This document shows, one piece after another, positions 1,547 through 7,163 of a stretch of DNA of 7,505 nt. The DNA comes from a virus (lineage: Duplodnaviria > Heunggongvirae > Uroviricota > Caudoviricetes): the IMG/VR virus record IMGVR_UViG_2706794493_000022, one strand, 5' to 3'. Every line of letters starts with the position of its first letter. Position 1 is the stretch's first letter. Position numbers and translations under genes: made by a program. The notes under the pieces are model-generated. The model worked only from the letters and a program-made list of their open reading frames with translations. It was not told the DNA's origin and searched no databases.

Positions 1547-2638
1547 TCACCCCCTGAATCCCGGCGGAATTTCGGTATCCGGTTCAGAAATATGATTCAC
1601 ACAACGCTGGTTGTTCGTGCCGCTTACCGGGAGCAACCAGGGGTTTTCAAAATTCCGGTCCGGCCCAAAAAACGTCGTCGCTCGCTGAACAAATTCCGTT
1701 CCCGCTTTCCCGGTCGCCGCCAGGTATCTCGCGTAACGCCTCACACCATCCAGCATGGTCTCTGGTGGCACCCCCTCGCGCAATCTGGCCTTCCAGGCAC
1801 TGAAAGCGGATTTCTTCGGGTTTGCCCCAGCACGCAACGGGTATTCCCGCCAGACCTGTTCGAACACATCCGGATAATCCACTCGTCCCACAGACTGCCC
1901 GGTGCTTTCCGGGACTACCCGATCGGCTTCCCGCTGAATGGCGGAATCGGCTTCAGGCTGCTGCAGTTGGTGTGATTGCTCCGACCCTGCGGTCATCACC
2001 TGCTGCACAGCGCCCGAATCGGCTTCCGGTGTCGTGCCTGCTGGCTGACCAGGATTGACGGTCTGAACATCCCCTGCCTGGTTCGTGGTGTTTTTTTTGC
2101 CATGAACCATAGTGTTTTTGTCCTGTTCCTGTTCTTTCTCCTGCTCCTGTTCCTGTTCTTGGCTTCGAAGCCCCTTAAAAGCCCCTTCGAAGCCCCTTAC
2201 CGAATTTCGGCTATTATTCCGCCTCACATCCAGATGGAAATCCGTTTTATATCTGTCGTAAAACACTGACAGAAAAGCGTTTTCAGGTAATGATGCATAC
2301 TCATTCCTGACACCTGCACAACGGTTATCGCCAGGCTTCAACGTTTCCCCAACCTGCCAGGCTGCCATTTCATGGACCCAGACCATCTCTGCATCATGGT
2401 CATAGCTACAAAAACCAGCTTCAACAGCCCTTTTAAGCCCCTTTGAAGCCCCTTCCAGACCAAGCCCGGTTTCATGAGCAAGGTATAAAACTGGCAGGTA
2501 ATACAAACCCAGCATATTTGCGTGAGGGGATGTCATCAGGTAAAAAGCAACAACTTGCGCTTCTGCACCCGCCTTTCTAAGTTCTCTCCCCGTTTCTCCC
2601 AGCCAGAATCGCGGAGAAACTTTTGCGTAATCACGCAT
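1547..2638 (-). CDS. Phage replication initiation protein (O-like replisome organiser) with Q/E-rich linker
   Basis: Long ORF immediately upstream of and coupled to the DnaC-like gene. Preferred start is ATG at 2638 (MRDYAKVSPRFWLG..., SD GAGGT 4 nt upstream) giving 363 aa; the ORF track's 2749 ATG has no SD. Contains a QEQEQEQEKEQEQ linker and internal direct DNA repeats. Family assignment is by gene context and architecture, not by a search. Confidence 0.75.
   Translation of the reverse strand: MRDYAKVSPRFWLGETGRELRKAGAEAQVVAFYLMTSPHANMLGLYYLPVLYLAHETGLGLEGASKGLKRAVEAGFCSYDHDAEMVWVHEMAAWQVGETLKPGDNRCAGVRNEYASLPENAFLSVFYDRYKTDFHLDVRRNNSRNSVRGFEGAFKGLRSQEQEQEQEKEQEQDKNTMVHGKKNTTNQAGDVQTVNPGQPAGTTPEADSGAVQQVMTAGSEQSHQLQQPEADSAIQREADRVVPESTGQSVGRVDYPDVFEQVWREYPLRAGANPKKSAFSAWKARLREGVPPETMLDGVRRYARYLAATGKAGTEFVQRATTFFGPDRNFENPWLLPVSGTNNQRCVNHISEPDTEIPPGFRG
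2121..2158. repeat. Imperfect hexanucleotide tandem repeat (TCCTGT-like units) encoding the Q/E-rich linker of the replication protein
   Basis: Seen directly: tcctgt tcctgt tctttc tcctgc tcctgt tcctgt; reverse complement encodes QEQEQEQEKEQEQ in frame. Confidence 0.8.
2167..2199. repeat. Three direct 11-bp repeats (consensus GAAGCCCCTT + 1), iteron-like, inside the replication gene
   Basis: gaagcccctta / aaagccccttc / gaagcccctta at 2167, 2178 and 2189, an exact 11-bp phase; flanked by the CTTCGAAG palindrome. Confidence 0.45.
2423..2455. repeat. Second cluster of three 11-bp direct repeats (AAGCCCCTT-like), iteron-like
   Basis: aacagcccttt / taagccccttt / gaagccccttc at 2423, 2434 and 2445, same 11-bp phase and core as the 2167-2199 cluster, about 256 bp away. 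Confidence 0.4.
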
Positions 2639-2672
2639 GGCTACCTCATCTGGTGCCGAACCTTCCTCCGGA

Positions 2673-2678
2673 TATAAT
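2673..2678 (+). promoter_or_regulatory. Candidate -10 hexamer (perfect TATAAT) of an antisense promoter between the replication gene and the upstream ORF
   Basis: TATAAT at 2673-2678, followed about 26 nt later by GAGGAGG (2704-2710) and ATG 2717. No good -35 seen. Confidence 0.35.
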
Positions 2679-2716
2679 CTGTGGTTCCCAATCGACAGAA
2701 CCAGAGGAGGTTCGAC

Positions 2717-3172
2717 ATGTATTTTTTGAAAAGCCTTTATCAGGCTCATGTATTAAATGTTGCAGCAACAAACCGCTGGTGTAACAGCCCCGAAATGCTC
2801 CCGGATTACAGAGCCTGGCTGCGCGCCGAAACATACCTTCGTCTCGACATATTGATTAGCGAACTTCAAAAAGAGACTGCATCCATTCATAACCTTCAGG
2901 GTATCGACGCTGTTCGCATTCTGGTATCGCGCCATAGTGCTCTCTCAATAATTGAAGTGCGTCATCTCTCTTTTTCTGAACTGATTTTCTTGCTTCAACC
3001 AGCTCTGGAATCAGCGAATATCCCGCCGGAAGTGATCCAATACCCACCTCATGTTGACGAGCAGTTACAAGATGTGCCATACAACCAGCGTGCTGGATTG
3101 ACTCCCTGCTCAGAGGCTGAATGGGATCACTCTCTGCTGAAGAAATACCAAGATTTGTATAATCCTCAATAA
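2717..3172 (+). CDS. Hypothetical 151-aa protein, antisense to the lytic operon (alternative to the minus-strand ORF 2856-3365)
   Basis: ORF with strong SD GAGGAGG 6 nt before ATG 2717 and a perfect TATAAT about 38 nt upstream. Overlaps the minus-strand ORF on the opposite strand, so both are unlikely to be real. Confidence 0.4.
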   Translation: MYFLKSLYQAHVLNVAATNRWCNSPEMLPDYRAWLRAETYLRLDILISELQKETASIHNLQGIDAVRILVSRHSALSIIEVRHLSFSELIFLLQPALESANIPPEVIQYPPHVDEQLQDVPYNQRAGLTPCSEAEWDHSLLKKYQDLYNPQ

Positions 3173-3365
3173 GCCCGGCACACGCTTCTGCATCAGCCAG
3201 CTTTATTCTGGTTTCCTTGCGCTGTTCTCTGGCTGACAAACGCCAGAGCAGCGCATTAGCTTTATGTATCAACCACTCTGCCAGCTCCACATCAGATAAA
3301 CCGCCACGCCAGATGTGCGGACTGTTTTCGTAAACGCTCAGTGTCAATTTTTTGTCATTACTCAT
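2856..3365 (-). CDS. Hypothetical 169-aa protein between the ydaT-like and replication genes (alternative to the plus-strand ORF 2717-3172)
   Basis: ATG at 3365 lies 13 nt after the ydaT-like stop, fitting the operon; SD is weak (GGGT). The ORF track's 3416 start is a GTG with no SD. Helical, acidic-looking sequence. Confidence 0.45.
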   Translation of the reverse strand: MSNDKKLTLSVYENSPHIWRGGLSDVELAEWLIHKANALLWRLSAREQRKETRIKLADAEACAGLIEDYTNLGISSAESDPIQPLSRESIQHAGCMAHLVTARQHEVGIGSLPAGYSLIPELVEARKSVQKKRDDALQLLREHYGAIPECEQRRYPEGYEWMQSLFEVR

Positions 3366-3378
3366 ATTTATTACCCAA

Positions 3379-3804
3379 TTAATGCACAGCCAGAGTGTTT
3401 CCTGCCGGGCCACCACGATTCATCTGATCGAACAGAACGATCGCTGATGCAACGAAATCATCAATATCTTTCACCAGCCGTTCCTTCGTCTCTACCAACT
3501 CCCGAAAATAAGCGGAACTGTGGCTGCGCATTCGGGCCACCAGCGGAGGCGGCATCGCTTTTTCGATCGCTGGTAACAACGCCTGAATTTTTTTAACCGC
3601 ATCAGGAGTGTCTTTCTCCACCCAGCGGAAAATTTTCTGAGTATTGCGAGCCATGGCTTCCGGATGGCTGTCGTCATACAGTTCCGGGAACGTCATTCCC
3701 AGCTCGAAATACGCTTTGGTAATTTTCGCAGCCGGTACTTTTTCGCCGTCCGGATGCGCCCAGGCATTCATCGCCATGCGGATGTGTTCATGCTTGATTT
3801 TCAT
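3379..3804 (-). CDS. ydaT: YdaT-like protein (CII-analogue regulator)
   Basis: 141-aa ORF starting MKIKHEHI and ending ...VH, immediately downstream of and overlapping the Cro-like gene by 17 nt; SD GGAG 7 nt upstream of ATG 3804. Symbol given from recalled similarity to Rac/CP-933P YdaT, not from a search. Confidence 0.75.
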   Translation of the reverse strand: MKIKHEHIRMAMNAWAHPDGEKVPAAKITKAYFELGMTFPELYDDSHPEAMARNTQKIFRWVEKDTPDAVKKIQALLPAIEKAMPPPLVARMRSHSSAYFRELVETKERLVKDIDDFVASAIVLFDQMNRGGPAGNTLAVH

Positions 3805-4597: not shown

Positions 4598-4789
4598 ATG
4601 GGTACAGCCCTTTCTCCGATAGTTTCAGAATTCGAAACTACCGAACAAGAAAACAGTTACAACGAATGGTTGCGCACTAAAGTAACGTCAAGCCTTGCAG
4701 ACACTCGCCCCGCAATTCCACATGACGAGGTAATGGCTGAAATGGAAAATCTTATTGCTCAAATTGCTGTAACTAACAAGAGCGAGTAA
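4598..4789 (+). CDS. paaA: Small antitoxin of a three-gene ParE-type TA module (PaaA-like, 63 aa)
   Basis: 63-aa acidic ORF; SD GAGGAG 7 nt upstream of ATG 4598; stop overlaps the ParE start (TAATG). The 63-aa size matches PaaA2 of E. coli O157:H7 as recalled. Confidence 0.7.
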   Translation: MGTALSPIVSEFETTEQENSYNEWLRTKVTSSLADTRPAIPHDEVMAEMENLIAQIAVTNKSE

Positions 4790-5076
4790 TGTTACCCATT
4801 TTATGGCTACCGTCTGCTCGCGATGATTTGCGCCAGATCATAACTTACATCGCCAAGGAGAACCCACCGGCAGCACGTAGACTAAAAATACGCATTGAAA
4901 CATCGGTATTACCTCTATCTGAGCATCCGTACTTATATCCACCAAGCGAACGGGTTTCTGGATTGAGAGAGATCGTGACCCACCCTAACTACATAATCCT
5001 GTACAGAGTAGCTGCTTCAAGCATTGAGATTGTAAGCGTGACACATTCTCGGCGACAATTTCCCTTCTCTATCTGA
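4789..5076 (+). CDS. parE: ParE/RelE-superfamily toxin (ParE-like, 95 aa)
   Basis: Typical ParE pattern (W...A..DL..I..YIA..NP.AA ... GLREI ... YIILYRV ... IEIVSVTHSRR); translationally coupled to the antitoxin by a 1-nt overlap. Confidence 0.85.
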   Translation: MLPILWLPSARDDLRQIITYIAKENPPAARRLKIRIETSVLPLSEHPYLYPPSERVSGLREIVTHPNYIILYRVAASSIEIVSVTHSRRQFPFSI

Positions 5077-6747: not shown

Positions 6748-6805
6748 TTTCTGGTGACGTTTGGCGGTATCAGTTTTACTCCGTGACTGCTCTGCCGCCC
6801 TTTTT
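6748..6805 (+). ncRNA. dicF: DicF small RNA (ftsZ-targeting, Hfq-dependent) with intrinsic terminator
   Basis: tttctggtgacgtttggcggtatcagttttactccgtgactgctctgccgccc followed by TTTTT matches DicF of the Qin prophage as recalled; GGCGG...CCGCC stem plus U-tail; sits between the ydfB-like and dicB genes as in Qin. Confidence 0.85.
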
Positions 6806-6974
6806 AAAGTGAATTTTGTGATGCGGTGAATGCGGCTGAGCGCACGCGGAACAGTTAAAACCAAAAACAGTGTTATGGGGGGATTCTCTGTATCCGGCGT
6901 TAATTGTTAACTGGTTAACGTCACCTGGAGGCACCAGGCACCGCATCACAAAATTCATTGTTGAGGACGCGATA

Positions 6975-7163
6975 ATGGAAACGTTATTACCAAACGTTAA
7001 TACGTCTGAAGGTTGTTTTGAAATTGGTGTCACTATCAGTAACCCTGTATTTACTGAAGATGCCATTAACAAGAGAAAACACGAACGGGAGCTATTAAAT
7101 AAAATATGCATTCTTTCAATGCTGGCCCGTTTACGTCCGATACAAAAAGGATGCTGGCAATGA
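6975..7163 (+). CDS. dicB: DicB cell-division inhibitor (62 aa)
   Basis: METLLPNVNTSEGCFEIGVTISNPVFTEDAINKRK...LNKICI.SMLARLR matches recalled DicB; SD GAGGA 7 nt upstream of ATG 6975 (the ORF track's 6870 start is upstream junk). Confidence 0.9.
   Translation: METLLPNVNTSEGCFEIGVTISNPVFTEDAINKRKHERELLNKICILSMLARLRPIQKGCWQ

Follow-up and report, generated by a model that had tools for sequence, protein, structure and literature searches.

Comparative evidence for a pair of convergent, overlapping protein-coding genes behind a conserved two-way leader in prophage CP-933M

Phage lambda has a promoter, pO, in the interval that separates cII from the replication genes, and transcription from it opposes the early rightward operon. 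The product, oop, is non-coding, 77 nt long, and ends at a terminator of its own. Lambdoid prophages also carry units called morons, which possess their own promoter and RBS, run against the flanking operon, bring variable accessory cargo, and are expressed while the prophage is repressed.

It is considered very rare, in bacteria and phages, for two conserved protein-coding genes to share a long antisense overlap. Most of the antisense cases reported to date depend on expression data for young ORFs of narrow distribution. The antisense overlapping genes of Escherichia coli O157:H7, such as asa, ano, and oloz, are mostly short, young ORFs embedded in older genes, and they have RNA-seq and Ribo-seq support but a narrow phylogenetic distribution (PMC6294744, PMC5960689, PMC9927249). 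None of the three overlapping genes in the last of these studies resides in a phage-derived region (PMC9927249). In Pseudomonas phage Fc02, the lysogeny-strand exclusion gene olg1 overlaps the early gene 10 in antisense, and both products lead to superinfection exclusion, with expression and phenotype shown experimentally (PMC9936078).

The locus described here shares features with each of these systems. It was analyzed within a window of 7,505 nucleotides (the whole stretch of DNA), which is 100% identical to the CP-933M prophage of E. coli O157:H7 EDL933 (the equivalent of Sp4 of strain Sakai). Between a ydaT/cII-like gene and a replication gene, a short plus-strand unit faces a minus-strand ORF of similar size (Table 1). 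In EDL933 record CP008957, the plus ORF corresponds to 1256691-1257146 on the reverse strand and the minus ORF to 1256498-1257007 on the forward strand. A previous sequence-only reading had listed for this unit a perfect TATAAT, a GAGGAGG element, an ATG, and the two ORFs, and each of these features lies where it had been placed. In the early rightward operon, the minus-strand ORF occupies third place, preceded by the cro-like and ydaT genes, and the RefSeq start of the replication gene and its homology both begin at ATG 2638. Other plus-strand content of the window includes a cI-like repressor gene, relBE, ydfA/B, and DicF.

Table 1. Coordinates of the overlapping gene pair, its leader, and its neighbors in the window
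Feature	Positions	Strand	Remarks
Replication gene, DnaD-like loader	1547-2638	minus	phrog_1701 match from residue 38 of the long ORF; downstream of the leader
Conserved two-way leader/junction module, about 75-80 nt	2644-2724	both directions	common to many prophages, with various plus-strand cargo genes
Putative -35, CTGGTG	2650-2655	plus	assigned from conservation; TTGGTG in most relatives
Conserved stem-loop in the early operon RNA	2655-2716	minus	just upstream of the replication-gene SD
Predicted -10	2673-2680	plus	TATAAT at 2673-2678, or TAATCT at 2675-2680 in a shifted register
SD, GAGGAGG	2704-2710	plus	6 nt before the ATG
Plus gene, ECs1072 family, 151 aa	2717-3172	plus	WP_000273724.1; ECs_5703 in the current Sakai record
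Tail-to-tail overlap, 317 nt	2856-3172	both	codon position 1 opposite position 1; 2 and 3 opposite 3 and 2
Minus gene, phrog_8304, 169 aa from ATG	2856-3365	minus	AAG55469 in the original EDL933 annotation
ydaT/cII-like gene	3379-3804	minus	Pfam PF06254, phrog_163; upstream of the minus gene

The parallel with lambda pO/oop that the sequence-only reading had drawn is sound for position and orientation, because the plus-strand promoter likewise lies between a cII analogue and a replication gene and would fire against the early rightward operon. It does not extend to the product. No short terminated RNA is apparent, a search of Rfam at a permissive threshold found nothing in positions 2639-3378, and an SD, an ATG, and a 456-nt ORF follow the promoter. 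Moreover, the opposite gene here is not cII but a separate, co-evolving gene. We consider it probable, on comparative grounds, that the two ORFs form a convergent protein-coding pair that overlaps tail to tail, in which the plus gene is an autonomous unit of the lysogen type and the minus gene is an early lytic gene. Like asa, ano, and oloz, the pair would be a non-trivial antisense overlap of protein-coding genes in the same organism. Unlike them, it is a partial, tail-to-tail overlap of two similar-sized genes with deep comparative support (identities down to 33%, several genera). In this respect the pair is the opposite of most reported cases, as it combines deep evolutionary support across genera with an internal natural control.

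Profile searches with both translations, a check proposed by the sequence-only reading, returned a match for each. The plus ORF passes NCBIfam model NF033230 (ECs1072 family phage-associated protein) with 105.7 bits against a cutoff of 70, and its residues 4-145 align to positions 3-141 of the 142 in the profile. PHROG 8304 matches the minus ORF end to end (E = 4.2e-120, positions 1-169 of 169). Existing annotations are accordingly in conflict: RefSeq/PGAP and NF033230 designate the plus ORF, whereas the original EDL933 annotation and PHROG 8304 designate the minus ORF, which EDL933 labels “unknown protein encoded by cryptic prophage CP-933M.” A genuine pair would account for this conflict, and either pipeline would then drop one real gene. 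Neither protein has a match in Pfam or PADLOC, and no defense-system model was found. A set of 50,697 deposited phage genomes, searched at the DNA and protein levels, likewise gave no match to either protein, with only the flanks and the leader matching. A pattern scan of genome contigs for the plus family also gave no match.

Both families have the appearance of evolving proteins. Members of the plus family found by protein searches are 144-157 aa long, retain identities down to 33%, and carry in-frame indels. The minus family extends to about 30% identity (22 representatives after clustering at 50% identity) and has its own motifs and in-frame indels. Where each gene stands alone, differences between lineages show coding periodicity, with values at codon positions 1/2/3 of 0.33/0.22/0.54 for codons 1-46 of the plus ORF and 0.33/0.24/0.51 for codons 1-64 of the minus ORF. 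An AlphaFold model of the plus protein, built from eight sequences, is confident (pLDDT 89.5, pTM 0.86). The minus protein is modeled poorly (pLDDT 55) save for one long helix at residues 25-72, which counts against the pair. The weak RBS that the sequence-only reading had noted for the minus ORF is true of this allele (GGGT) but not of other lineages, in which GGAGG, GAGG, or GGGG lies 5-9 nt upstream of the start. If the GTG at 3416 were used instead, the minus protein would be 186 aa long.

The comparison covered about 15 lineages from E. coli, Salmonella, Klebsiella, Enterobacter, and Yokenella, with identities down to 33%. The pair separates cII from cro in some lambdoid prophages and cII from the replication genes in others, and it also occurs in Cox-Int-exonuclease VIII elements of Salmonella and E. 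coli. The plus gene opposes the early operon in every locus and has the same direction as the repressor gene wherever the latter is identifiable. Both ORFs are open, in a single register, at 14 loci representing about 10 lineages, and the overlap ranges from 257 to 323 nt. When the search was started from the minus family, all distinct IMG/VR loci found also held a plus-family ORF. Broken alleles are rare and affect both sides: two loci have nonsense alleles of the plus ORF (L197 and L198), and the minus ORF is frameshifted in three (L208, L009, and L010). Two further loci (L007 and L008) carry the plus gene alone, and there the minus frame is interrupted by five stops and lacks its N-terminal part. 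The minus ORF is thus dispensable in some lineages, and this, like the nonsense alleles of the plus ORF, counts against the pair.

Several tests were applied to the overlap itself. In a sliding window, periodicity follows the plus frame between 2717 and about 3060; from about 3062 onward, including the stretch up to 3172, it follows the minus frame. Between about 2912 and 3046 there is a uniformly constrained zone in which periodicity is ambiguous. When the synonymous codons of one ORF were shuffled in this stretch of DNA alone, the other frame was stop-free in 0.1-2% of trials. Lineage by lineage, the probability was 0.001-0.34 for a stop-free minus frame when the plus gene was shuffled and 0.0003-0.14 for a stop-free plus frame when the minus gene was shuffled. 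Open frames on both strands exceed chance, and the effect is far stronger across lineages than in the single stretch. Among codons for the same amino acid, synonymous differences between lineages are fewer inside the overlap than outside it: 0.40 compared with 0.63 for the plus gene, and 0.32 compared with 0.56 for the minus gene. The loci without a minus ORF provide a contrast: over the region of the overlap, comparisons that involve L007 give a synonymous divergence of 0.71 for the plus gene, and comparisons in which both loci keep the minus ORF give 0.40. Suppression of synonymous change in the plus gene is thus confined to loci in which the minus ORF is present.

The most direct test was a simulation in which codons were resampled for a fixed protein alignment of 10 lineage representatives. 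In the overlap, identity of the minus frame is 0.345 against an expectation of 0.174 +/- 0.007 (z = 25), with no stops where 22.6 were expected (minimum 11). Identity of the plus frame is 0.401 against 0.158 +/- 0.007 (z = 35), again with no stops where 31.3 were expected (minimum 16). The non-overlapped parts served as controls and stayed near expectation (27 and 28 stops, z = 1.5 and 6.5), so the signal is not created by the test itself. The lineages are not fully independent, and the slight excess seen in one of the controls (z = 6.5) reflects residual shared ancestry. Conservation of each frame is about double what the other frame by itself would impose, a pattern that points to purifying selection on both. 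The sequence-only reading had left it as a choice which of the two strands is coding, and this either/or does not hold up: the substitution patterns preserve both frames, as is appropriate for a true antisense-overlapping gene pair. Its suggestion that the plus unit could encode a protein is, by the same comparison with related prophages, well supported.

Four other accounts of the locus were weighed against these results. It is improbable that the plus ORF is the only gene and the minus ORF an antisense shadow of its codon choice. RefSeq/PGAP and NCBIfam do annotate the plus ORF alone, the plus protein has a confident fold and the minus protein has none, and the plus gene persists without a minus ORF (L007/L008) or with a frameshifted one (L009/L010). 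In some lineages the shuffling test for the minus frame is also not significant (P = 0.28-0.34). However, the 64 unique N-terminal codons of the minus ORF are periodic and its homologues have an SD, its family has motifs and in-frame indels of its own, the synonymous sites of the plus gene are constrained only where it is present, and its frame is free of stops in the overlap, compared with 27 stops over the plus-only part. The converse, in which only the minus ORF is a gene, the 151-aa ORF is open by chance, and the plus promoter yields an antisense RNA that, like oop, does not code for protein, is exceedingly hard to credit. The periodicity of the unique plus codons, the constant length of the plus family down to 33% identity, the quality of the plus model, the lack of plus-frame stops in the overlap, and the solitary plus genes of L007 and L008 all speak against it, as does an SD-ATG block that is conserved and fused to each cargo. 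What this account does capture is a promoter at the lambda pO position, antisense to the cII analogue, and the choice of the minus ORF by the original EDL933 annotation and PHROGs. It also fits a relative without cargo (L005), in which the leader abuts the 3′ end of ydaT, pointing in, and the ATG is mutated to ATA. This arrangement resembles lambda oop, as the transcript would enter the 3′ end of a cII-like gene.

An intermediate possibility, which we regard as rather unlikely, is that both genes are real but that their overlap is partly incidental. Function would then reside in roughly the first 100 minus and the first 115 plus residues, and the C-terminal tails would simply read on to a chance stop. 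The switch of periodicity from the plus to the minus frame near 3060 is in keeping with this idea, and the last 20-30 residues of the minus protein vary in sequence and length (148-169 aa in total) and are predicted to be disordered. Yet both frames are stop-free over the entire 257-323 nt in all lineages, and each protein has a conserved motif in the region concerned. For the plus protein this is LPPCSExEWD at the C terminus, which is kept even in L007, where no minus ORF is present, and is modeled with pLDDT 87-94. For the minus protein it is P-x-GY-x-L-P-[DE]-L, which lies deep in the overlap and is conserved across families. Finally, the plus unit might be mainly regulatory, with its transcript or its transcription silencing the early operon (the minus gene, ydaT, and cro) and perhaps reaching the cI-like gene, in the manner of lambda oop or pRE, and with the protein as a passenger. 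This is a real but minority possibility, and it is compatible with coding. The leader is conserved while its cargo is interchangeable or absent, the unit is directed toward ydaT, cro, and cI with no terminator found after the ORF, and the leader hairpin of the minus strand appears to be under selection. Weighing on the other side are the purifying selection that the cargo proteins themselves appear to experience and the weak -35 element.

Between 2644 and the ATG, the leader that precedes the plus gene is conserved to a far greater degree than either of the two genes. Phage pPE4 and E. coli loci with other cargo, or with none, have it at 92-93% identity. A pattern scan of IMG/VR located it in 99 stretches of DNA, and it is present in 569 of 5426 complete E. 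coli genomes. Among 53 distinct leaders, the putative -35 element reads TTGGTG in 27, CTGGTG in 15, GTGGTG in 6, and ATGGTG in 3. All 53 have a TAnnnT hexamer 15-20 nt after the -35, with T1, A2, and T6 invariant while the surrounding loop varies; 12 different hexamers occur, and an upstream TGn is found in 18 leaders. That the key -10 positions are fixed while the rest drifts matches the prediction for a functional sigma-70 promoter. The perfect TATAAT emphasized in the sequence-only reading is indeed present here, but this exact form is specific to an E. coli subtype, and the conserved form is TAnnnT. Downstream, a block reading GGAGGTTCGACATG is conserved ahead of all cargo families.

These comparisons indicate that the plus unit is served by a sigma-70-type promoter of its own, separate from the flanking operon, and they agree with the earlier description of an autonomous promoter, SD, and ATG opposed to the early genes. 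A simple promoter scan did not report the promoter of the plus unit because its -35 (CTGGTG) matches the consensus poorly. A similar scan identified no terminator for the unit; the nearest plus-strand terminator-like site, at 3542-3559, is at chance level. A YdaT operator in the leader was also considered and rejected. The inner repeat, TGATT-N4-AATCA, has the wrong spacing relative to the published TTGATT-N6-AATCAA and is degraded in this DNA.

The same junction has a second use when read on the other strand. The spacer between the -35 and -10 elements (2656-2671) is complementary to the SD region (2700-2716), and the resulting stem-loop is significant on both strands. The minus-strand fold has a predicted free energy of -29.6 kcal/mol (z = -4.2, compared with z = -3.9 for the other strand). 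When the leaders were folded one by one, the minus-strand RNA was the more stable in 51 of the 53 distinct sequences, with a mean of -29.1 kcal/mol versus -21.6 kcal/mol for the plus strand. This difference arises because positions that are C-A mismatches in the plus-strand RNA become G-U pairs, of which there are many, in the minus-strand RNA. The outer and inner stems both show compensatory changes. RNAalifold, applied to a MAFFT alignment of the leaders, produced a weak consensus because the leader loops align poorly, and folding of individual sequences was more informative. Given the systematically greater stability of the minus-strand form, selection seems to act mainly on the early operon transcript. 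The comparative data thus portray a junction that is used both ways, with a promoter and RBS on the plus strand and a conserved, stable hairpin ahead of the replication gene on the minus strand. Our guesses for the role of the hairpin are processing, stabilization, or antitermination.

In the fold-back inhibition typified by IS10, an anti-SD sequence is located upstream of the native transcription start. The leader shows the same layout, with an SD-complementary sequence (2658-2668) upstream of the predicted start site of the plus unit. The SD would therefore be sequestered in read-through plus transcripts and not in those that begin at the proximal promoter. The leader differs from IS10 in that its hairpin is more stable, through G-U pairs, in the opposite RNA.

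If the two ORFs are a convergent gene pair, as we favor, their positions suggest how they might be expressed. The plus gene has its own promoter, a strong SD, and an ATG, and it runs parallel to the cI-like repressor gene. We infer that the lysogen expresses it as it would a moron, at a time when the early promoter is repressed. The minus gene, third in the early operon, would be expressed on induction or infection. Convergent transcription across the roughly 300 shared bases could then make expression of the two genes reciprocal and antagonistic. Because the pair is co-inherited and diverges together as one cassette, the two proteins may act on the same process as cognate partners. One candidate role is an exclusion or defense function of the lysogen phase that is neutralized or replaced by the phage’s own early protein. 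With no match for either protein among the 50,697 phage genomes and no defense-system model, this proposal is speculation.

The closest counterpart to such a scheme is found in Fc02. There, as in CP-933M, the immunity region of a temperate phage has a gene on the repressor strand that overlaps, in antisense, a gene of the early lytic operon. The two systems involve unrelated proteins and phage groups, however, and their geometry differs, as olg1 also overlaps olg2 on the same strand. Expression and phenotype were established experimentally for Fc02, whereas those of the CP-933M pair are deduced. In the expression literature, ECs1072 is mentioned once, in a microarray table (PMC2241611), and the strand concerned is ambiguous, as ECs_5703 has meanwhile taken the place of ECs_1072 among the Sakai tags. 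Literature searches under the Z-number and ECs5703 produced nothing relevant to expression of the locus. A set of 72 novel translated ORFs includes one, X013 (288 bp, phage), that is near the coordinate of the locus (PMC4765031). No 288-bp ORF fits here on the strand given, and X013 may instead be the relE-like gene.

The leader is not dedicated to the ECs1072 family. At least 10 unrelated cargo families occur behind it, including the ECs1072 family (39 loci), a 97-aa family (35), relatives of pPE4 gp13 (9), a BssS-like protein (Pfam PF13991), and others. The plus unit resembles a moron in its own promoter and RBS, its orientation against the flanking operon, its variable cargo, and its occurrence in lambdoid prophages. 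It differs in that a single portable, conserved leader serves at least 10 cargo families, in that no terminator was identified, and in that many of the cargos come with a cognate convergent, overlapping partner gene. In many prophages of pathogenic E. coli, Salmonella, and Klebsiella, the leader marks a variable accessory-gene slot within the early operon, and this slot is where new lysogen-phase functions might be sought.

Several of the other cargo families also have a convergent minus-strand partner with a long overlap. In the gp13-like/gp12-like pair of the pPE4 type, the overlap is 194-239 nt and has the same register as in the ECs1072/phrog_8304 pair. In the pair formed by the 97-aa protein and a 110-117-aa partner, the overlap is 207-273 nt and the register is different. 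Both types show consistent depletion of stop codons across lineages. In hhalign comparisons, the plus family aligns with the gp13-like family at E = 2.5e-4 (probability 43%, collinear over 66 columns), and the minus family aligns with the gp12-like family at E = 7.6e-6 (probability 84%, with a common N-terminal motif). These values suggest that the gp13/gp12 pair is a distant relative of the ECs1072/phrog_8304 pair. Together with the other overlapping pairs, this relationship makes the convergent two-gene arrangement appear both old and recurrent.

A broader idea, which we put forward tentatively and think possible, not probable, is that such pairs constitute an undescribed class of exchangeable two-gene cassettes at one two-way junction. 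Each cassette would join a lysogeny-strand gene to a cognate, converging early lytic gene, several unrelated families would overlap by 200-320 nt, and the overlap would serve as a mutual-exclusion mechanism through transcriptional or antisense interference. An example might be a defense or exclusion effector made by the lysogen, paired with an antidote or counterpart made during the phage’s own lytic growth. For some cargos behind the same leader, the partner gene abuts the cargo and does not overlap it.

The leader is not tied to a single kind of cargo. The same leader stands ahead of a second cassette, unrelated to the pair of overlapping genes in the window, at four of the related prophage and phage loci compared (L070, L074, L109 and L112) and at other IMG/VR loci. 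This second cassette consists of a plus-strand ORF of 92-99 aa (beginning MKVQAVGLFWFRD) and a convergent minus-strand ORF of 92-147 aa, which overlap by 207-273 nt in a frame register that differs from that of the window pair. Four diverged lineages keep both reading frames open. At the Salmonella loci L007 and L008, two leader-plus-cargo units lie in tandem on one strand: a partnerless gene of the ECs1072 family comes first, followed by a gp13-like gene partnered by a gp12-like one. These tandem units show that cassettes can stack. At the L005 locus of E. coli VL40, the leader, with ATA in place of its ATG, directly adjoins the 3' end of ydaT. This cargo-less arrangement is the configuration most like oop, and it may represent an unoccupied cargo slot.

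Within the leader, the inner inverted repeat reads TGATTCCCCAATCA in most E. coli examples and is degraded to TGGTTCCCAATCG in the window. The same repeat forms the inner stem of the hairpin in the minus-strand early-operon RNA, where compensatory changes are present, and it could also be an operator.

The replication-gene ORF is open upstream to an ATG at 2749 (400 aa), across the leader. According to both the RefSeq annotation and homology to phrog_1701, which sets in at residue 38, the gene starts at 2638. Translated in this extension, the leader gives GNHRLYPEEGSAPDEV, and an identical peptide occurs upstream of unrelated replication genes at L001 and L003. We attribute the N-terminal extension to conservation of the leader and regard it as artefactual.

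L001 is PP818812.1, deposited as "Actinobacillus phage vB_Apl-pPE4". In this record the two overlapping ORFs are each annotated, as gp13 on the plus strand and gp12 on the minus strand. The phage leader and the E. coli prophage leader share 92.7% identity, and the phage's immunity region is of the enterobacterial type (DicA, ydaT, Kil and Ea22). The assignment of Actinobacillus as host looks surprising.

Features of the window and of the L005 leader
Feature	Position	Strand	Remark
Inner inverted repeat	2681-2696		just 3' of the -10; surrounds the predicted start site
Replication-ORF extension	2639-2749	-	
YdaT operator, perfect copy	3794-3811		matches published TTGATT-N6-AATCAA (TTGATTTTCATGAATCAA)
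YdaT operator, 2 mismatches	2852-2869		spans minus ORF stop codon; within chance expectation
relB/relE-type toxin-antitoxin pair	4598-5076	+	directly downstream of cI-like repressor gene
DicF sRNA	6749-6800	+	Rfam RF00039; 76.7 bits, above gathering
STnc100-like match	6798-7007	+	39.7 bits, below gathering score of 47
Cargo-less leader (L005)	2501-2577		E. coli VL40

The perfect YdaT operator copy sits where the cro-like gene meets ydaT, the position that operator OM occupies in CP-933P (PMC9986795). CP-933P likewise carries a relB/relE-type pair directly 3' of its cI-like repressor gene. A candidate for the translated "X013" of PMC4765031 is the 288-bp toxin ORF, but the coordinates and strand of the two could not be made to agree. 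The STnc100-like match comes directly after the DicF sRNA.
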